The position numbers and the translations under genes were made by a program. A stretch of 64,000 nt of DNA. Origin: a virus. The stretch lies in the IMG/VR virus record IMGVR_UViG_3300025437_000010, positions 32,001 through 96,000 of that record, one strand, 5' to 3'. Under the pieces are notes generated by a model. That model was not told the origin of the DNA. It searched no databases and saw nothing but the letters and a program-made list of their open reading frames with translations. Positions 3,719-59,116 of this stretch are shown piece by piece; positions within the stretch are counted from its first letter, which is position 1; each line of letters begins with the position of its first letter.

Positions 3719-5919
3719 TGAGAGCAAATGAATTCATAACAGAGTCATCGGGAGTAAGACTCAAAGATTTAGCCACTGTGAAAACTAATTTTCCGGATGC
3801 CGATTTCTGGCTTCAGCGCAAAGGTAGCGAGAAGTCTGTAGGCACACCAACCAAAGAGTTTTCACCAGAAAATATCGGCATCAAGGTAACGGCTACTGAT
3901 GTTCTTGATGCAAGATATCTGTATTACATGATGCAGCATATTCACAACATTGGATATTGGAAACAGTTTGCGAGTGGTGCATTGAGACTAGTCAATCTTC
4001 CATTACAACATGTTGCCAATCTTCCTCTTGGTATGAATGAATCTTTAAATGAAGATGAAAATGTTCAAATAAAAACTGACCTAACTTATACCGATAGCTA
4101 TCAGGGACAGGCAGACGGATTCATACTTGCATCTGCTAACGGTAAATCACCATGGGCGGATGAAGGAAATGGCTATTGTCCTAATGCAGTTGGTGGATTG
4201 GATTTTAGTATCTACGAAGGCAAGGCATTAATCAAAATGGTGCAGGTTAAGCCCGAATATCAACGCATGGGAATCGGATTGGCTTTAGTAAAAAGACTTG
4301 AACAAGAAGTTGGTAAGGGAAACATTGACTGGGGGATGATGACCGACACCGGAAAAGTATTACATGATAAGTATCAGAATTTAGATGAGGCGTTGCCAAC
4401 TTGGGCTAAAAAAGGTGAGTTTATAATTGAGTCAATCGGACCTGATACGATCTTTAATCAGGTGAAAAAAATTCACCATACCTTCCGAGATATAGAAGAA
4501 GGTGATTTACCTGACCGTATCTATTGGTTTAGTGAGTACAAGAAAAGTGAACTCCCGCTATCACTGCTTTATTTACATGAATTTTTTGTTGATGAGCAAT
4601 TGGTAGATGATTATGTAAAACTAATCCAATCTTCACCCAATACAATGCCGCCTATTGTATATGATCCTATCGCTGGTTCAATCATTGACGGTAATCATAG
4701 AGCCAATGCTTATGCTAAATTAGGCTATGACACTATACCCGCATACGTTGGGTTAACAAAATCTGACAGTTACGGTGAGCGTGAAAACGAAATTGACGAA
4801 GCATTTCCTTCTTGGGCTAAAAAAGGTGCATTGGCAGCAGGCGGCGCGGCTGCATTGGCGGCTGGTGGTGTAGCACTAAGGCATGCACAAGACGATAAGC
4901 CTCAAGTCAGATTTGAACTCCCAAATGCTAAATCAGCAGAGAACGCACTCCGCCAAGATGCAAAAATTCTCGCTCATACTATGTGGGGAGAAGCAAGAGA
5001 CCAAGGCATTGATGGTATGATTGCCATCGGCAACGTCATAAATAATCGTGCCAAGGATACGAAACATGCAAGAATGTTTGGACAAGGCATCAAAAATATT
5101 GCAACCAAACACAAGCAATTTAGTTGCTGGAATCCCAATGATCCAAACTTTAAGTATGCTAAAGAAATGGAAAAAATTGATCACATCGTCAACACAAAGC
5201 GCGCGCCGAACAACGAAGACTTCAATAAATGGTTATCAGAGTTTAAAAATACCGGAGAGTTTCTAGATTATAAAAAATGGCGTAAGAGTTTAGAACTGGC
5301 AACTAAAATTCTGTCTGGTCAACTTCCTGATCCAACTCATGGAGCAGTGTATTATCACACTAAAAACGTTCATCCTGAATGGGCAAAGAGTATGAAAAAA
5401 ATAGGCTCACTTGGTCAGCACGTTTTTTATTCTTTACCTACGGCTATAAAAGAAACTCATGAATTAGACGAATACAAAGTGGACAATGAAAATGGTTTGG
5501 GTCAAGTTCCATACAATGCTAATGTGGATTATATGGGATTACGAGTTTTAATGAAACCGAGTATATTTTTGAAACTTGCTCACAAATTAGAAAATCCCAG
5601 AAGCGTTGATCATATCGTGAATCACATTAAACAAGGTGGCGCATTGGGTTCTCCATTTTTGTCCATAGACATTCCCCGTGAATGGGAAGAGGGCGATTTC
5701 AAACATGATGCCAGAGTAAGCGGACACGAAGGACGCAATCGCATGATGGCTATTCAGCAAGTTGAAGGCGATGATCCAGTTGAAGTTCACCTATTTCCGC
5801 GTGGAGGAATGAGAGCCAGACATCTTACGTCAGAAATTATCAAGCATTTACAAGATAGTATGTTTGGACAAGACGGAAACTATGTGTGTGGAAATTTATT
5901 CCAATTAATGCAAAAATAA
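3718..5919 (+). CDS. Multidomain protein: HsdS-TRD-like fragment, GNAT, ParB/Srx-like, SleB/Hydrolase_2 cell-wall hydrolase, second ParB-like domain
   Basis: VKPEYQRMGIG (GNAT); IIDGNHR (ParB); LAHTMWGEAR...QFSCWN...DPTHGAVYYH...HVFY (SleB); GHEGRNR. Domains are separated by LNE/LDE/IDE linkers. Confidence 0.75.
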   Translation: MRANEFITESSGVRLKDLATVKTNFPDADFWLQRKGSEKSVGTPTKEFSPENIGIKVTATDVLDARYLYYMMQHIHNIGYWKQFASGALRLVNLPLQHVANLPLGMNESLNEDENVQIKTDLTYTDSYQGQADGFILASANGKSPWADEGNGYCPNAVGGLDFSIYEGKALIKMVQVKPEYQRMGIGLALVKRLEQEVGKGNIDWGMMTDTGKVLHDKYQNLDEALPTWAKKGEFIIESIGPDTIFNQVKKIHHTFRDIEEGDLPDRIYWFSEYKKSELPLSLLYLHEFFVDEQLVDDYVKLIQSSPNTMPPIVYDPIAGSIIDGNHRANAYAKLGYDTIPAYVGLTKSDSYGERENEIDEAFPSWAKKGALAAGGAAALAAGGVALRHAQDDKPQVRFELPNAKSAENALRQDAKILAHTMWGEARDQGIDGMIAIGNVINNRAKDTKHARMFGQGIKNIATKHKQFSCWNPNDPNFKYAKEMEKIDHIVNTKRAPNNEDFNKWLSEFKNTGEFLDYKKWRKSLELATKILSGQLPDPTHGAVYYHTKNVHPEWAKSMKKIGSLGQHVFYSLPTAIKETHELDEYKVDNENGLGQVPYNANVDYMGLRVLMKPSIFLKLAHKLENPRSVDHIVNHIKQGGALGSPFLSIDIPREWEEGDFKHDARVSGHEGRNRMMAIQQVEGDDPVEVHLFPRGGMRARHLTSEIIKHLQDSMFGQDGNYVCGNLFQLMQK
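4400..4828 (+). repeat. 18-bp exact direct repeat CTTGGGCTAAAAAAGGTG (4400-4417, 4811-4828) flanking the ParB-like domain
   Basis: Read directly from the sequence. Confidence 0.9.
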
Positions 5920-14279: not shown

Positions 14280-15971
14280 GTGTCATATGTTGATGCCATC
14301 CTTTCAATAAAGGATGATAAAATACATGTGGTAGAGCGAAGCCCTGAAGGCAATCGGATATACAAAGAATATCCAACAAATTATGTTTTTTATTACCCTG
14401 ACCCAAAGGGAAAGCATCGTTCTATTTTTGGTAATCCACTTAGTAGATTTTCAACTCGCAAGAGAAATGAGTTTGAAAAGGAAAAGCGGATTCATGGTAA
14501 CAAAAAACTATTTGAAAGTGATGTTAATGCGGTATTTAGATGCTTGGCAGACAACTATCTCAATGTAGAACCTCCCAAGTTACATACTTGCTTTTTTGAT
14601 ATTGAGACGGACTTTGATCCTGAAAAGGGTTTCAGTCCGACAGACGATCCATTTAATCCAGTCACGGCGATTTCTTTGTATTTGGATTGGAAAGATCAGT
14701 TAATCACTCTTGCTATTCCACCAAAACACATGACCGATGAAACGGCGCAAGAGTTAGTGCGTGACTTTCCTAACACGTTTCTGTTTCGTTCTGAAATTGA
14801 AATGTTTGAGACATTCTTCCAACTGATTGAAGATGCCGATATTCTCACTGGGTGGAACTCAGAGGGATACGATATTCCTTATTGTGTAAATCGGGTAACC
14901 CGAATTATGTCTAAGGATGATACACGTAAGTTCTGCCTTCTTGGTCAACTTCCGAAGATTCGCACATATGAACGATTTGGTAAAGAAGAAACTACCTACG
15001 ATTTAGTCGGGCGAGTTCATATGGACTATTTGCAGTTATATAAAAAGTATAACTACGAATCGCGCCATAGTTATTCTCTTGATGCAATTGGTGAAATGGA
15101 AGTAGGTGAACGTAAGACTCAATATGAGGGTTCACTTGACCAGTTATACAATCAAGATTTCAAAACCTTTATTGAATATAACCGACAGGATACTATGCTT
15201 ATGGTGAAGATTCATCGTAAGACTAAGTTTCTTGAATTAGCAAACGCACTGGCACATGAAAACACAGTGTTGTTACCAACGGCTATGGGTTCGGTGGCGA
15301 TGATCGAAATGGCGGTCATCAATGACGCACATTCTCGTGGATTTGTCGTTCCCGATAAGAATAGGAAAGATGGACCAAGCGATGACCAACAGGCGGCTGG
15401 TGCATATGTTGCCACACCACAGGTTGGAATGCACGAATGGGTGGGAGCAGTGGATATTAACTCACTGTATCCTTCTGACATTCGTGCATTGAACATGTCA
15501 CCAGAAACCATCGTTGCTCAGGTTCGTCAGACTCTTACCGAACAGTATATGGCTGACAAAACCAAAAAAATCAAGCAAAGCAAAAAACAGAGCAAAAGAA
15601 AGGATAGCACTACTGACAAAGAAATAACTGCTGCTTTGTTATGGGAAAATCTTTTTGGATCGCTTGAATATACTGCGATCATGAATCAGGAACGTGGCAC
15701 TATATTGATCGTTGACTATGAAGACGGAAGATCAGTAGAAATGTCTGCTGCTGAAATCTGGAAGATGATATTTGACAGCAATAATCCATATATTCTCTCT
15801 GCGAATGGCACGATCTTTACCTATGAAAGGGAAGGAGTCATCCCCGGTTTGCTATCAAGATGGTATTCAGAACGTAAGGCTACACAAAAGCAAGCCAAGA
15901 CGGTCAGAACTTTAAACTCTGGTATTGAAATCAATTCAAAATTAGCCGAAAAACTTAAAAAAATACTTTAA
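14280..15971 (+). CDS. Family B DNA polymerase, N-terminal subunit (exonuclease, motif A, first finger helix)
   Basis: FFDIETD, GWNSEGYDIPY, YNRQD, DINSLYPS, WYSERK. Confidence 0.92.
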   Translation: MSYVDAILSIKDDKIHVVERSPEGNRIYKEYPTNYVFYYPDPKGKHRSIFGNPLSRFSTRKRNEFEKEKRIHGNKKLFESDVNAVFRCLADNYLNVEPPKLHTCFFDIETDFDPEKGFSPTDDPFNPVTAISLYLDWKDQLITLAIPPKHMTDETAQELVRDFPNTFLFRSEIEMFETFFQLIEDADILTGWNSEGYDIPYCVNRVTRIMSKDDTRKFCLLGQLPKIRTYERFGKEETTYDLVGRVHMDYLQLYKKYNYESRHSYSLDAIGEMEVGERKTQYEGSLDQLYNQDFKTFIEYNRQDTMLMVKIHRKTKFLELANALAHENTVLLPTAMGSVAMIEMAVINDAHSRGFVVPDKNRKDGPSDDQQAAGAYVATPQVGMHEWVGAVDINSLYPSDIRALNMSPETIVAQVRQTLTEQYMADKTKKIKQSKKQSKRKDSTTDKEITAALLWENLFGSLEYTAIMNQERGTILIVDYEDGRSVEMSAAEIWKMIFDSNNPYILSANGTIFTYEREGVIPGLLSRWYSERKATQKQAKTVRTLNSGIEINSKLAEKLKKIL

Positions 15972-15975
15972 GTGA

Positions 15976-15998
15976 TAAATACCCTATACGGAGGTATT
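15976..15998 (+). promoter_or_regulatory. Late promoter overlapping an RBS-sequestering hairpin for the HNH gene
   Basis: TAAATA at 15976-15981; AATACC (15978-83) pairs with GGTATT (15993-98) over GGAGG. Confidence 0.6.
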
Positions 15999-17177
15999 AT
16001 GAACTTAATTGATATAGAAACCATTATGAGAGACATGTGCAGTATAAAACATGAACACTCATTTAAACGATACCTAAAATTGATTGAAATTTACAGAAAA
16101 TTAAATTTATCCAAGAAAAGTTTTGGAAAAGGTGAGATTGAAGCGCATCACATTCTTCCAAGTAAAATATGGCAAGAATATAAAAAAGAAAAATGGAATA
16201 TAGTGAACCTACCCGTCCGTGCTCATGTTATCGCGCATTATCTACTTTATAAATTTTTACCAAAATCGGAGTGTGTGTTTGCGTTTAATCAGATGCACAG
16301 AGTTTCCGTAAAAACAGGAAAGTTAAACGCCAGATTATATGCCAAAGCGAGAATTGAATTGGCGCAGTTGGTAAGCAAAGTCAATTCCGGCAGAAAATGG
16401 TCAGATGAACAGCACAAATTGCATAGAAAAATTCATTGTGGTAAAAACACATATCGCAATATCACATCTGGAGAGTGTAAAAAGTTTATAGTAGGAGATG
16501 AACCGGCAGGATGGGAGCCGTTCCAGACTGGTCGGACAAAGAGTATTGCAGCAAAAGAAAAAATGGGAGAGTCAATGTCTGGAAGAATATGGCAATATCA
16601 TTCGGAATCTAAAGAGGTTAAATTTGCAAACTTTTTAATAGATGGGTTTACGAAGGGAATACCGCCATGGTTTGTCTATGATCATGCAGAAATTACGAAA
16701 ACCTACAAATGGGCATATAATCCGGATACAAACGAAGTTATTCGGTGCGCAGAAATTGATATTCCCGTTGGGTTTGAATTGGGGCGGGACCCGTCTTATG
16801 TTAACAAAGGATTTGAAAAAATAAATCAGTCCGGTTTATGTAGGATGCTGGACATTGAAGACAAATGTTATACGCTAGTATCAGAAGATATTTTACCTAA
16901 CCCACGATATGTTAAACATGGTGCTTGTGTTGACGATATTTATGTGATATTATACAAAGACAGTATTTATTATTCTTGGGTTGATGTAGAACGAGAACAC
17001 CCAGAATTGCCGAAAATGAACAAAAAGAGAGATATCTCTCTACTTGACTACGTTGTGCCTAAAAAGCATTTTAACCAAACACCAGATAGGCAACGTTTTT
17101 GTGAAATGCATCATGGTAAAACATTTGGAGAAATTGGAATATCTATGCGAAAACTAAAGGAAAATGACAATGATTGA
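15999..17177 (+). CDS. Free-standing HNH homing endonuclease
   Basis: EAHHILP...NIVNLPVRAHVIAHYLL; NUMOD-like repeats ending GWEP and GFELGR. Confidence 0.8.
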   Translation: MNLIDIETIMRDMCSIKHEHSFKRYLKLIEIYRKLNLSKKSFGKGEIEAHHILPSKIWQEYKKEKWNIVNLPVRAHVIAHYLLYKFLPKSECVFAFNQMHRVSVKTGKLNARLYAKARIELAQLVSKVNSGRKWSDEQHKLHRKIHCGKNTYRNITSGECKKFIVGDEPAGWEPFQTGRTKSIAAKEKMGESMSGRIWQYHSESKEVKFANFLIDGFTKGIPPWFVYDHAEITKTYKWAYNPDTNEVIRCAEIDIPVGFELGRDPSYVNKGFEKINQSGLCRMLDIEDKCYTLVSEDILPNPRYVKHGACVDDIYVILYKDSIYYSWVDVEREHPELPKMNKKRDISLLDYVVPKKHFNQTPDRQRFCEMHHGKTFGEIGISMRKLKENDND

Positions 17178-17362
17178 TACAGAATATATCAACACCCTAA
17201 TAAAGACAGAAGACGTTGATGGTCTTGCCGCGTATATGAAAAAATATAAATTGCGATTATCCGCAGACAACAAAATTATTGGTGATGCGGATGTTGTTGC
17301 TGAATCTTATGCTTACTGGGATAAAAGACAACTCGTGCGAAAAATTCTCCTAAACTCTGCGT
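17164..17362 (+). CDS. DNA polymerase C-terminal subunit, exon 1
   Basis: Own AAGGA RBS and ATG; YWDKRQLVRKILLNSA (motif B). Confidence 0.85.
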
Positions 17363-17642
17363 TAATTCCTAGCGCCCTTGTGTAGTGATACACACTGAAT
17401 AACCCGTCTAATTGCTGGAAACTCTCATTGCGTAATGGCAGAGACAATCAGCAGCCAAGTAGAAATAGATTATTTCTAAAGGTTCAACGACTAGCCCATA
17501 GTGGCGTAAGCAATAAGCCAATGATTGCTGAAACGGCGGGGGTCTATACTTAATAGATCGTGATATAGTCTGTTCTAATATGAAAATATTAGCAGCATTT
17601 TAAATGCGGATGTGAAATTGCTAATCACATTGAACACTAAAG
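17363..17642 (+). ncRNA. Group I intron (IA-like), ORF-less, 280 nt
   Basis: Exon-terminal U pairs with G in P1 (GCGU/GCGC). P AATTGCTGGAAA, Q AATCAGCAG, R GTTCAACGACTA, S GATATAGTC. P3 CCCGTC/GGCGGG; terminal G. Splicing restores LNSA-Y-GALLN. Confidence 0.92.
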
Positions 17643-18700
17643 ATGGTGCACTTCTAAACGAACACTGCCGATTCTATGATAAACGAATCGGTCAGTCAGT
17701 AACTCTTTCTGGTCGTCAAATTGTTCGCCACATGATGAGCAAGATCAATGAGATTATTGAAGGGACTTATTCTCACGAAGGAAGTTCAATCGTATATGGA
17801 GATACTGACTCCTGCTATTTCTCTGCATATCCAATTCTTAAGAGTCAAATTGATTCTGGTGAAGTTGAATGGGACAAAGACACCTGCGTTGCATTGTATG
17901 ATAACATAGCAGAACAGACCAATGAAAGTTTTCCTGCATTCATGGAGAAAGCATTTCATTGTCCACGCAAGAATGGTGCAGTCATTAAGGCTGGTCGCGA
18001 ATTGATTGGTGATCGTGCTATCTTTATTGCCAAGAAGATTTATGCCATCAATATTTTTGATCTTGAAGGCGATAGACTTGATCTGATTATTGACGAGAAT
18101 GATGCTATCAAAAAAGGCGTAAATATCGGTTACGGTAAGGTAAAGGCTATGGGTGTCGCATTGAAGCGGTCGGATACGCCAAAATACATTCAAGAGTTTT
18201 TAATGGATGTATTGTGTATGGTAATTCAACAAGGCAAACAGCGCGAGGAAGTTATTCAAAAAATAAAAACGTTTAAAACCTATCTTTCTGGTCAAGATAG
18301 TTGGACCAAAGGTAATCCCAAGTCTGTAAATAAACTAACGTATCATACTGCAAAATTTGAAAAAACTGGACAGTGTGGAGTTGGTCATGCCAAGGCAGCA
18401 ATCAATTACAATTATCTGCGTAGAATGCACGGTGATAACTACAGCCAAAAAATTGTTGATGGCATGAAGGTAATTGTATGTTCACTTAAACCCAATCCTC
18501 TCGGATTTACATCTATTGCATACCCAACCGATGAATTAAGATTGCCTCAATGGTTTTTGGATTTGCCATTTGATGACAAGGACATGGAACGCAAATTGAT
18601 AGATGAAAAAATTGAGAACTTGCTCGGCGTCCTAAAATGGGACTTACGAATTGATACTGATACAAACAGCACCTTCGCAGATTTGTTCAATTTTGGTTAA
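17643..18700 (+). CDS. DNA polymerase C-terminal subunit, exon 2
   Basis: GALLN, GQSVTLSG, YGDTDS, KKIYA, KRSDTP. Confidence 0.92.
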
Positions 18701-54488: not shown

Positions 54489-55925
54489 ACCATATGATTT
54501 AAATGGAAGTGCATATAAAGACCTTCCTAACCGTCTTGAAAAACAGGCTCAAAATGTTGAAAAAGACGGGTGGCTTAATGCTGCCCGTCTTATGCGTAAT
54601 GCTGCCGATGTCCTGCGTGAACTTCACGAGAATAATATTATTAAACTTGACTTGGATGGAGATGATGATGTATAATATACTTTGCCGTATTGGATTTCAT
54701 AGTTGGGTGATACTTGATAGTGTTGGCATGACCAATCCCTACCGATGCAAAAACTGCGGAAAGAGCACGATGAAATGAACGAAGACAAATACAAAGTTGC
54801 ACTGGAAAAACTGATTTCAGTTCTTGACCGTTGCCCTCAATTTGAATCTGGGGCAGGTGGAATGTCCATTGAAGCACAGATGCGTAGAACCTTTATCAAT
54901 CGTGTTCCTGCTATGGCAGTAGAAGATGCACGTAATGTTTTGTTAGGTATTGATGATTATGAGTCCTGAACTTGATCAACATATTAGAGAGAAGTATCCA
55001 CTTATCTTTCAGAACTCATGTGAAATGAGCATCGGTGATGGCTGGTTTGACATTGTAGACAATGCATGTGGTGGCATTCAAACTCATATTGATTATACTG
55101 AACAACTGATTGTAATGGCTATTCATTGGAATAATCAAGTGAACGATCCTGATTTTGATTGGGATGCACACAAAGGCTCTTTTACCAAGAGAGAAGAACG
55201 AAAAGTTCCAGAGCCGGTTGAACAAGTTGTTGCCACACAGATCAAAGAAAAATTTGGCAATTTTCGTTTCTATTATCAGGGTGGCGACGATTATATTCGC
55301 GGGATCGTCAGTATGGCAGAAGCAATGAGTGCCTTAACATGTGAAGAATGTGGACATCCCGGTAAAAAACGAAATAGAAAACATTGGTTTTTGACACTTT
55401 GTGACAAACATGCAGAAGAACAAGGATTTATTCAAGATGAATTTACGAGTACTACTTAAAGCATTAATCCCATCAAAACGAGATATTAAGTTTGCTGGAC
55501 AAGTTTCACTTTTATGCATAGCCATGATGGTGATCGCACTCCCGGTTATACTTGCTGTAGGGACCGCCTTCCTTGGTATTTGTTACCTTATTACTTTCTT
55601 TTTGGGTAGTTATGTCACAAATGTATTCGTATACGTTTTGGGCATATCGTGGTTTTTGTGGATTATGTTCGGTGATACAGTAATGAACAGATACCAAAAT
55701 AATCTCCAAAAAATTAAGGACAAGTAAATGGCAGAAGATCAAAAATTTATCATGGTTGTGATTAGTGTTGTAGTCTATTTATTCATAGCATTTTCTACAA
55801 CACTGACAAATGCCGGTGAGGACATTCATCCTCTTATGGGTGTCTGGTGGCCAATTCTTCTTGTTAGAGAATTATGGAAGTCATTTTATAAGCATGTCAT
55901 CTGTGAAAAGTGGTATTGAATCTGC

Positions 55926-55994
55926 TTGACAATAGATCGGTTATTTGTTATATTTGTTCTTTAGAAAGGATATAACATGACCCGTATCGCTATC
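55926..55994 (+). pseudogene. Relict promoter, RBS and 5' end (MTRIAI) of the metallophosphoesterase
   Basis: TTGACA-N17-TATATT, AGAAAGGA, ATG at 55977; GCTATCCGAC resembles GCTTCCGAC at 56820. Confidence 0.5.
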
Positions 55995-56714: not shown

Positions 56715-56743
56715 TTGACATCAATTAATTTTGATGTTATAAT
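56715..56743 (+). promoter_or_regulatory. Perfect sigma70 promoter TTGACA-N17-TATAAT with internal inverted repeat
   Basis: Consensus match; ACATCAA...TTGATGT. Confidence 0.8.
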
Positions 56744-56774
56744 CAATCTATCATTTAACAAAGGAATCATAATT

Positions 56775-57656
56775 ATGAATCAGAAAGGAAAAGGTGTCGG
56801 AAGTTTGCGTGTTGCAATTGCTTCCGACCTTTAGCTCCACTTGGAATTTGAAACCATTACTCTTCCAAACACAGAAGGAGCAAAGGTTCTTATCCTTGCA
56901 GGTGATATCGTGACTGCATATGCACTTCATGAGAACCCACACCCTATCATTCCTCCAGCAGAACATGTCATCTGGAAGCCAAGTAAAGGCCAACAATTGG
57001 CTATGCGTTTTCGTGAATTCTTTAACCATGTAAGTGCTGAATATGAACATGTAGTTTACGTTGCTGGAAATCATGAGTTTTATCATGGTAAATATCCCGA
57101 TGCATATGACTGGCTTCGTGAAGAAATGAAAAACTATCCAAACATTCATTTTCTTGATCACGATAAAGTTGAAATTGATGGTATCACTTTCCTTGGCGGC
57201 ACACTTTGGACCGACATGAACAAGCGCGATCCATCTACGCTGCAGTTGATTGAAGGCATGATGAATGACTTTCACATTATTCGTAATAGTCAGCAGAACT
57301 ACCGAAAGTTTCTTCCTGTGGACGCGGTAGCACATCATGCGTCTACTTTGGGATATATCAGACAGACGGTTGATGCTGATCCGAGCAAGCAATATGTCGT
57401 AATAGGACATATGGCTCCTACTCCCTTGAGCATTCATGCAAACTACAAAAACGATTACTATATGAATGGTGGATATCATAGTGATCTGTCTGAATTTATT
57501 CTTGATCGTCCTCAGATTACTCATTGGTTCCATGGACATGTTCATAACCCATTTGATTATATGATGGGTGATACTCGTGTTGTGTGTAATCCGCGTGGGT
57601 ATAAAGGGCACGATCCCAATGCTGATCTGTTTCAATTGAAGTTTTTGGATATTTGA
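56775..57656 (+). CDS. Calcineurin-like metallophosphoesterase interrupted by in-frame CTT-TAG-CTC
   Basis: ASD-L-*-L-HLEF, LAGDI, AGNHE, GHMAP, HGHVH, NPRGY. Confidence 0.8.
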
Positions 57657-58594: not shown

Positions 58595-59116
58595 ATGAAG
58601 CCTAAATTTATTGATTACTTTATGAAATTTGCTGCACTTACTAGCACACTTAGTTATGCAAAACGATTGAAAGTTGGAGCAGTTATTGTAAAAAATGATA
58701 CTCAGATTATCGCCACTGGCTATAATGGAATGCCGAGTGGATGGGATAATGACTGTGAGTTTAAAGTTTGGGACAATGGGGCAGGAGGATGGCTTTCTGT
58801 TGAAGAGTTTGAATCCCAATATCCATATGAAATGTGGAATGAGCAATCCAGATGTAATGTTAGATATGGATTAAAGACTCGCCCCGAGGTGCTACATGCA
58901 GAAAGTAACGCACTTATGAAGGTGGCAAAAAGCACGGAGTCATCCGAAGGTGCTACTTTGTTTTGCACTCATGCACCATGCATTGACTGTGCCAAACTTA
59001 TCTATCAAGCAGGAATCTCAACAGTATATTACCAAGAACAGTATCGCGACGATGCTGGATTGCGATTTTTGACACAAGGGGGGATTAATGTCCATAAGTA
59101 TACCGACTGCCCATAG
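58595..59116 (+). CDS. dCMP deaminase
   Basis: VGAVIV, GYNG.P.G, HAESNA, THAPC..C. Confidence 0.9.
   Translation: MKPKFIDYFMKFAALTSTLSYAKRLKVGAVIVKNDTQIIATGYNGMPSGWDNDCEFKVWDNGAGGWLSVEEFESQYPYEMWNEQSRCNVRYGLKTRPEVLHAESNALMKVAKSTESSEGATLFCTHAPCIDCAKLIYQAGISTVYYQEQYRDDAGLRFLTQGGINVHKYTDCP

Follow-up and report, generated by a model that had tools for sequence, protein, structure and literature searches.

A candidate programmed stop-hop at the edge of a mobile endonuclease cassette in a phage metallophosphoesterase gene

A metallophosphoesterase gene in a 64,000-nucleotide (nt) stretch of viral DNA (IMG/VR record IMGVR_UViG_3300025437_000010, positions 32,001-96,000, from a contig of 110 kb and 39% GC; the stretch at its full length is called the window here) is interrupted within its first catalytic motif by six extra bases, a UAG stop codon and a leucine codon. 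We found the same codon interrupted in 21 distinct genes, and comparison of these genes with uninterrupted relatives suggests that the extra bases mark where a mobile homing-endonuclease cassette ends on its 3' side; the cassette would supply both a replacement 5' end for the gene and a programmed stop-hop, by which ribosomes would decode Leu-stop-Leu as a single leucine. We put the probability of this reading at roughly 0.8. The original prediction, made from the letters of the window alone, had proposed such a CUU-UAG-CUN hop that rebuilds the sequence S-D-L-H-L-E-F, with the help of a stem at the take-off codon, and it is supported by the 21 genes, their matched CTN codons, the selection on their open reading frames (ORFs), a hairpin specific to them that shows compensatory changes, and variants with a double stop or an 8-nt gap.

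Results

Reading from the ATG at 56775-56777, which is preceded by a ribosome-binding site (RBS; AAAGGA, 56760-56765), the frame gives MNQKGKGVGSLRVAIASD and then CTT (56829-31), TAG (56832-34), CTC (56835-37), CAC (56838-40), TTG (56841-43), GAA, and TTT. In profile searches, the 271 amino acids (aa) downstream matched Pfam Metallophos (PF00149, calcineurin-like metallophosphoesterases) at 35.1 bits (cut-off, 21.5) and phrog_1649 at 3e-48, and motifs II to V (GD, GNH[ED], H, and GHxH) are present in the protein. Motif I, read linearly, is D-L-stop-L-H, and D-x-H is obtained only if CTT-TAG-CTC yields one leucine. When the window was aligned at the nucleotide level with L001, its closest relative (71% protein identity), exactly six additional bases stood between GAC CTT and CAC in the window. 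A promoter, an RBS, and an ATG at 56775 in frame with an intact metallophosphoesterase had all been predicted, and all were confirmed (a 12/12 sigma-70 promoter, AAAGGA, a frame open to 57656, and the PF00149 match). The six bases are genuinely part of the phage DNA and not an assembly error, because contigs of independent runs (X10 record 3 and X13 record 14) reproduce the site with 0 differences and 0 gaps. The stretch is present in 24 freshwater metagenome runs.

We searched for relatives both with and without the interruption. The best 80 relatives in IMG/VR all begin M-K-I-A-L-x-S-D-L-H-L-E-F without interruption, and the D-x-H spacing that motif I had been predicted to need is exact in all 65 distinct uninterrupted relatives. 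Among viral contigs, a degenerate pattern for D-L-TAG-L-H-L-E-F recovered seven real cases. When both flanking codons were left free, the pattern returned seven matches in these contigs, all of them CTN-TAG-CTN metallophosphoesterase genes and the same seven, while a version with TAA or TGA as the first stop gave one non-coding chance match and no real case. The CTN-TAG-CTN configuration is far beyond chance. A scan of metagenomes added 14 real loci and variable-gap patterns ten more; in all, there are 21 distinct interrupted genes, which we refer to as hop genes. In 596 Gb of prokaryote genomes, the free-codon pattern had four matches, all non-coding chance matches, and no real case. Cultured phage records yielded no match in a near-identity search and none in a distant blastn search with the 81-nt cassette core; protein-level matches there reached at most 36% identity, and no cultured carrier was found.

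The codons around the interruption follow a strict rule (Table 1). The first stop is TAG in 21/21 hop genes, and the take-off codon (before the stop) and the landing codon (after it) are CTN in every one, with the non-identical pairs limited to CTT/CTA, CTT/CTC, and a single CTC/CTA. TTR occurs at neither codon in any hop gene and the take-off codon is CTT in 17 of the 21, whereas the uninterrupted relatives use TTA or TTG at the same leucine in 22 of 60 (37%) and CTT in only 4 of 65. In L118 the gap is 8 nt long, and an intact 289-aa ORF resumes in the +2 frame.

Table 1. Take-off codon, gap, and landing codon in the 21 hop genes
Take-off	Gap	Landing	Distinct genes
CTT	TAG	CTA	10
CTT	TAG	CTC	2 (window included)
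CTT	TAG	CTT	1
CTG	TAG	CTG	1
CTA	TAG	CTA	1
CTT	TAGTGA	CTT	2
CTT	TAGTGA	CTC	2
CTC	TAGTGA	CTC	1
CTC	TAGTGAAA	CTA	1 (L118)

A further contig from the same lake samples, belonging to another phage (run X10, record 2), matches window 56774-56834 and reads CTT TAG GGA CTA CAT TTA GAA TTC. This is a 9-nt variant of the hop with the sense codon GGA in the gap instead of a second stop, and it has only 30 loose letters at the contig end.

All 18 of the 18 complete downstream ORFs in hop genes are open, at 263-306 aa, and the columns for H-L-E-F, GD, GNHE, H, GHxH, and NPRGY are retained in 21/21. Between close hop-bearing pairs, the ratio of nonsynonymous to synonymous substitution rates (dN/dS) was 0.09-0.16 at dS 0.17-1.1. 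As judged from these substitution patterns, the data show purifying selection on the downstream ORF in hop-bearing genes; the relaxed selection that the original prediction had named as a sign against hopping was not found.

We also compared RNA structure upstream of the take-off codon, using a segment of 43 or 51 nt that ends at the Asp codon. In the window, an outer core stem of 9 bp pairs 56796-56804 (GTCGGAAGT) with 56820-56828 (GCTTCCGAC) and encloses an inner stem of 4 bp (TTGC, 56805-08, with GCAA, 56814-17); an optional extension of 4 bp would join AAGG to the take-off CUU and the first base of UAG. A stem that closes at the take-off site, with the inner TTGC/GCAA, had been predicted, and it is real and specific to hop genes, although its arms, placed in that prediction at 56791-56803 and 56821-56832, had to be corrected to the positions given here. 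All 21 hop genes form a stem of 9-13 bp in which the Ala-Ser-Asp codons make up the 3' arm; this arm stops with the Asp codon, directly before take-off, or 1 nt sooner in L082. The minimum free energy (MFE) of the hop-gene segment ranged from -9.0 to -23.0 kcal/mol, with a median of -17.9 (16 genes folded at 43 nt), whereas 63 distinct uninterrupted relatives, which lack such a stem, had a median of -2.6 kcal/mol and reached -6.6 kcal/mol at best. In the aligned stem, 88.8% of cells pair, against 31-48% when the partners are slid, and one pair shows a compensatory switch from A-U to G-C in 5 sequences. L098, L103, and L114 are off the common register yet still form a stem, its 5' arm being either shifted in register or located in the 5' untranslated region (UTR); that of L114 has 11 bp and a different loop. 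The RNAfold z-score of the whole 121-nt region of the window was only -1.47, and the hairpin signal resides in the contrast with uninterrupted relatives and not in the stability of a single sequence. Matched codons, TAG, and stem are thus all kept across the 21 genes, the conservation in related phages that the original prediction had named as a check. The serine codon in the 3' arm is TCC or TCT in hop genes and mostly AGT or AGC in relatives, and the 3' arm is therefore cassette sequence.

Two features of the hairpin region concern initiation. In L098 (235-1179), the 5' arm lies in the 5' UTR and the hairpin encloses the Shine-Dalgarno sequence and the ATG, so it could also gate initiation. 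In the window, an in-frame TTG (56805-56807) sits at the native-start position of relatives, which is ATG in L082, L098, L107, L111, and L115. Most hop genes have TTG or ATG at this column (alignment A1, columns 25-27), immediately 3' of the 5' arm of the outer stem, and in L082, L098, and L111 it is the sole usable start. Hop genes may therefore be translated from two start sites, with take-off as early as codon 9.

The sequence upstream of the window gene points to the origin of the interruption (Table 2). In L001, a homolog of window 54950-55459 directly precedes the phosphoesterase gene, and the window is ~1.3 kb longer there, a difference that includes the endonuclease gene. Equivalents of the orphaned start to the left of the endonuclease are found in L118 (MKIALCSDL) and, in shorter form, in L116, L085, and L100. 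An endonuclease homolog lies within 1 kb upstream, on either strand, at 16 of the 21 hop loci (two of these being decayed remnants) but at only 2 of 80 uninterrupted loci (Fisher p 2e-12). The endonucleases of hop loci are 33-83% identical, the promoters and N-terminal extensions of the cassettes have diverged, and the hop is retained where the endonuclease has decayed or gone (L081, L100, L103, L107, L109, and L120). A tree built from the enzyme bodies requires a minimum of 4-5 changes of the hop state, and in it the window groups with the hop-bearing L082 and the hop-less L001 at 100% support. The orphaned starts, the association with the endonuclease, and the comparison with L001 together indicate that the mobile cassette brings along the endonuclease, a promoter with an RBS, an N-terminal extension that varies, the displaced codons in a second copy, and the stop. 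A local alignment of the orphaned promoter region with the region upstream of the L001 gene gave no significant similarity, and the left edge of the cassette is thus not mapped to the base. The original prediction had taken relatives without the six bases to speak against it; L001 and 79 others do lack them, but this does not refute the hop, because phages gain and lose the mobile cassette of which the interruption is part.

Table 2. Features of the interrupted locus (window coordinates)
Feature	Position	Strand	Remarks
Orphaned original promoter, TTGACA-17-TATATT	55926-55954	+	11/12 match; lies to the left of the endonuclease
Orphaned original gene start: AAAGGA RBS, ATG ACC CGT ATC GCT ATC (MTRIAI)	55977-55994	+	Continues directly into the antisense endonuclease gene at its 3' end
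Free-standing homing-endonuclease gene, 215 aa	55990-56637	-	phrog_314 homing endonuclease, 2.1e-13; absent from the syntenic L001 position
Cassette-borne replacement promoter, TTGACA-17-TATAAT	56715-56743	+	12/12 match, TG extension; similar promoters at other hop loci
ORF1, replacement 5' end, MNQKGKGVGS + LRVAIASDL	56775-56831	+	Last codon is the take-off CTT (56829-56831)
5' stem-loop	56796-56828	+	3' arm is the Ala-Ser-Asp codons, its last base directly preceding the take-off codon; -16.6 kcal/mol
Six extra bases: UAG stop (56832-34) and landing Leu codon CTC (56835-37)	56832-56837	+	Missing in L001 and 79 other relatives
ORF2, metallophosphoesterase body	56835-57656	+	Landing codon to stop (57654-57656); Pfam PF00149, phrog_1649; carries H-L-E-F, GD, GNHE, GH(M), GHxH, NPRGY

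The window endonuclease had only a NUMOD3 match in Pfam (E 0.017, below the cut-off), and the homolog at L090 matched GIY-YIG (PF01541) at 17.7 bits (E 0.0046), below the cut-off of 22.6. The proteins thus fall short of assignment to the GIY-YIG family, with GIY/YIG-like N-terminal motifs seen by eye only, and a PDB sequence search with the window endonuclease returned nothing meaningful.

Several loci depart from the common arrangement or adjoin it. L098 has no endonuclease upstream and carries a transposase instead (phrog_506, 7e-94). L051, the tree sister of the 8-nt-gap L118, has endonuclease fragments (2274-2460 and 4275-4520) flanking a phosphoesterase gene that carries no interruption; the hop may have been lost there in a "hit and run" event, or the cassette may never have needed one. 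In the window, the space from the syntenic upstream gene to the orphaned promoter holds two small hydrophobic ORFs (108 and 63 aa; 55401-55919), which had no family match and no counterpart in L001. Farther away (14280-18697), the DNA polymerase is divided into two ORFs, of which 14280-15968 corresponds to phrog_262 positions 14-486 and 17612-18697 to positions 518-850. The two are separated by a small ORF and an HNH-type homing endonuclease of 401 aa (15972-17174, phrog_655), and the split looks like the result of another endonuclease insertion. The dCMP deaminase (58595-59116) is ~30 residues longer than its homolog at L001:4665-5102 (171 versus 140 aligned residues), which suggests that it carries an internal insertion.

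Discussion

We propose that a mobile cassette invaded the first codons of the phosphoesterase gene and orphaned the old start, leaving the enzyme dependent on a hop. Peptidyl-tRNA-Leu on CUU (56829) would meet UAG in the A site; the tRNA would unpair, the mRNA would move by 6 nt (9 or 11 nt in the variants), and the tRNA would re-pair with CUC (56835; the next CUN in the variants), with decoding resuming at CAC. The product would read A-S-D-L-H-L-E-F, with the D-x-H metal motif intact, and its junction peptide would be VAIASDLHLEFETITLPNTEGAK. At take-off, the 3' arm of the hairpin would occupy the E site and exit channel, with the inner 4-bp hairpin and the 5' arm already outside, and each base of forward movement would add one G-C-rich pair. 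Pairing of the exiting mRNA would thus act as the driver, an idea put forward for bypassing in gene 60 of phage T4 (10.1101/2024.12.09.627546). Termination may be slowed by the Asp that precedes the take-off residue and by UAG, a stop that is rarely used. By analogy with mobA and gene 60, the extra bases would break the DNA target of the endonuclease, and they would protect the carrier because the replacement 5' end would otherwise recreate that target, while the hop would keep the enzyme functional.

Several points weigh against this proposal. The signal of purifying selection might in principle predate independent, recent insertions. Covariation in the stem is modest, because the cassette copies are related: double changes occur at only 2 pairs, and the covariation score was reached by 46 of 500 shuffles. 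Hops from CUU to CUA (10 genes) and from CUC to CUA (L118) would call for a tRNA able to tolerate or read either third base. The Leu-stop-Leu arrangement could partly be a by-product of the homologous 5' end of the cassette abutting its target. Finally, the nascent chain has only 9-19 residues at take-off, which favors drop-off, and the efficiency of the hop could be low.

The main rival explanation is that the hop genes are null alleles left by a selfish element, such that the cassette breaks the gene, no functional enzyme is made, and the ORFs are intact only since the insertions are recent. It draws on the facts that the interruption occurs together with a homing endonuclease, has a scattered distribution on the tree, and affects a gene that is evidently dispensable in the neighborhoods of some relatives. 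We nevertheless regard it as improbable: the cassettes are old, to go by the divergence of their endonucleases, promoters, and N-terminal extensions, yet every complete ORF is open and the catalytic motifs are all kept; dN/dS is low between hop-bearing sister genes; and the hop persists at six loci where the endonuclease has decayed or gone. Plain disruption would also leave the matched CTN codons, the exclusive use of TAG, and the positioned hairpin unexplained. Clearly less probable again is a scheme with two products, in which translation ends at UAG and the body arises by reinitiation or internal initiation, the body being either inactive or complemented non-covalently by the Asp-containing peptide of 9-19 residues. 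Such a body would lack both the D and the H of motif I, and no selection would be expected on the matched codons or on the position of the hairpin. The window does have a TTG at 56841, two codons past the landing codon, at which the original prediction had considered a restart; we rejected this because the codon is not conserved among relatives, most of which have TTA or CTN there and no start codon nearby.

Slimmer still are the chances of two routes that would leave the hop unnecessary. Readthrough or suppression of UAG would give D-L-X-L-H; UAG followed by C is a weak termination context, and some phages recode TAG. However, neither a tRNA nor a transfer-messenger RNA gene was found in the window or on the whole 110-kb contig, TAG serves as an ordinary stop for 9 of the contig's 151 long ORFs (including the endonuclease and dCMP deaminase genes), and no genome-wide pattern of TAG-split genes was seen among those ORFs. 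Readthrough is excluded for the family because some relatives have two consecutive stops (TAG-TGA) and one has the frame-changing 8-nt gap; for the window itself, the argument against linear decoding rests on the broken D-x-H motif, which is invariant in the 65 uninterrupted relatives. Much the same small weight falls to a route at the RNA level, in which the extra bases are removed from the transcript or skipped by the polymerase. This would place an identical requirement on the product, and the hairpin could in principle be a processing signal, but no mechanism is known by which 6-11 nt would be cut out of bacterial mRNA, the site offers no homopolymer on which transcription could slip, and the matched-codon rule is the signature of peptidyl-tRNA re-pairing. 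A sequencing or assembly artefact is hardly credible, given the identical sequence in contigs of independent runs, the presence in 24 freshwater runs, and the same feature in 20 further, diverged genes.

Going beyond the programmed stop-hop itself, we suggest tentatively, at somewhat less than even odds, that a hairpin re-zipping behind the ribosome is enough for a stop-hop of 6-11 nt, without a long nascent-peptide signal or an A-site stem-loop. The site would then be a natural, minimal, and possibly efficient device, and motif I of phage metallophosphoesterases a hotspot at which endonuclease elements repeatedly evolved this kind of target immunity. On that view, the alleles found in nature, with gaps of 3, 6, and 8 nt, four pairings of codons, and hairpins in several registers, would amount to a mutational map of short-range bypassing.

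If our reading is correct, this would be the first natural programmed stop-hop. Utilized translational bypassing is known from very few systems, namely T4 gene 60 and its homologs and the inserts of yeast mitochondria, and the solution that combines an endonuclease with a bypass, as in T4, would have arisen at least twice, in unrelated genes and with different types of endonuclease. The locus would offer a test bed of ~60 nt, with many natural variants, for the idea that pairing of exiting mRNA drives bypassing (10.1101/2024.12.09.627546). Gene callers will label such enzymes truncated or pseudogenes, and similar short hops may therefore hide in many phage genomes.

Comparison with known systems

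The closest parallel is the 50-nt bypass of T4 gene 60, which is associated with the MobA element (Huang 1988; Bonocora 2011). In both cases the take-off and landing codons match, UAG follows the take-off codon, Asp precedes the take-off residue, and a 5' stem-loop forms on the mRNA leaving the ribosome (10.1101/2024.12.09.627546, preprint of Wills, Parsawar & Atkins). Both interruptions lie inside a conserved metal-binding motif, where an endonuclease cassette ends on its 3' side, and in both the cassette contributes a unique extension at the N-terminus plus a stretch homologous to the target it displaced; the bypass persists after the endonuclease is lost, and the insertions are multiple and scattered. 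The bypass of gene 60 protects against nicking by MobA, with a layout of N-terminal extension, homologous region, and bypass (10.1101/2022.08.31.505936, preprint of Manning & Atkins).

The two systems also differ. The gene here encodes a metallophosphoesterase and not a topoisomerase, the hop covers 6-11 nt and not 50 nt, and the endonuclease belongs to phrog_314, with sub-threshold NUMOD3 and GIY-YIG-like matches, and not to the HNH type of MobA. The mini-Shine-Dalgarno sequence and AU-rich gap of gene 60 have no counterpart, and the gap is too short for a take-off/A-site stem-loop, which is absent. The hairpin sits directly against the take-off codon, whereas that of gene 60 lies 9 nt upstream. 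N-terminal extensions of the KGKGVGS type are common in hop genes but appear dispensable, being missing or out of frame in L082, L098, and L111; what all hop genes share is only the Asp before the take-off residue, and by this comparison a nascent-peptide signal of the gene 60 type does not appear to be encoded. The upstream fragment is just an orphan of 6-9 codons and not a functional ORF1. The likeness to gene 60 that the original prediction had seen thus extends to the codons, the UAG, the Asp, a 5' stem-loop, and an endonuclease cassette, but not to the take-off/A-site stem-loop or to a required nascent-peptide signal.

Free-standing homing endonucleases of T4-like phages (seg and mob) are also comparable, in that the nuclease gene is inserted beside the site in a conserved gene that it presumably targets, carriers and naive genomes are not alike at that site, and the flanks are co-converted; immunity there usually comes from silent polymorphisms or an intron and not from an untranslated insert. 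The bypassing inserts in mitochondria of Magnusiomyces capitatus are 27-55 nt long. Like the sites described here, they are short mobile coding inserts made harmless by bypassing and present in many natural copies (Lang 2014; Nosek 2015; cited in PMC5009743). They differ in using an unassigned sense codon in the A site, in residing in a eukaryotic organelle, and in having no known tie to a homing endonuclease.

CUU UAG CUA, the commonest natural pair among our genes (10 of 21), is reportedly the classic construct of the 1987 stop-hop paper. Of natural in-frame stop hopping, a 2016 review by Atkins and colleagues stated that "no occurences are known" (PMC5009743), and our full-text literature searches found neither a later report of a natural stop-hop nor a link between bypassing and metallophosphoesterases. 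In the synthetic stop-hops of Escherichia coli (Weiss, Dunn, Atkins & Gesteland 1987; O'Connor 1989), nine nucleotides give one residue (PMC5009743). Unlike those constructs, the site in the metallophosphoesterase genes is natural, conserved, and accompanied by a positioned hairpin.

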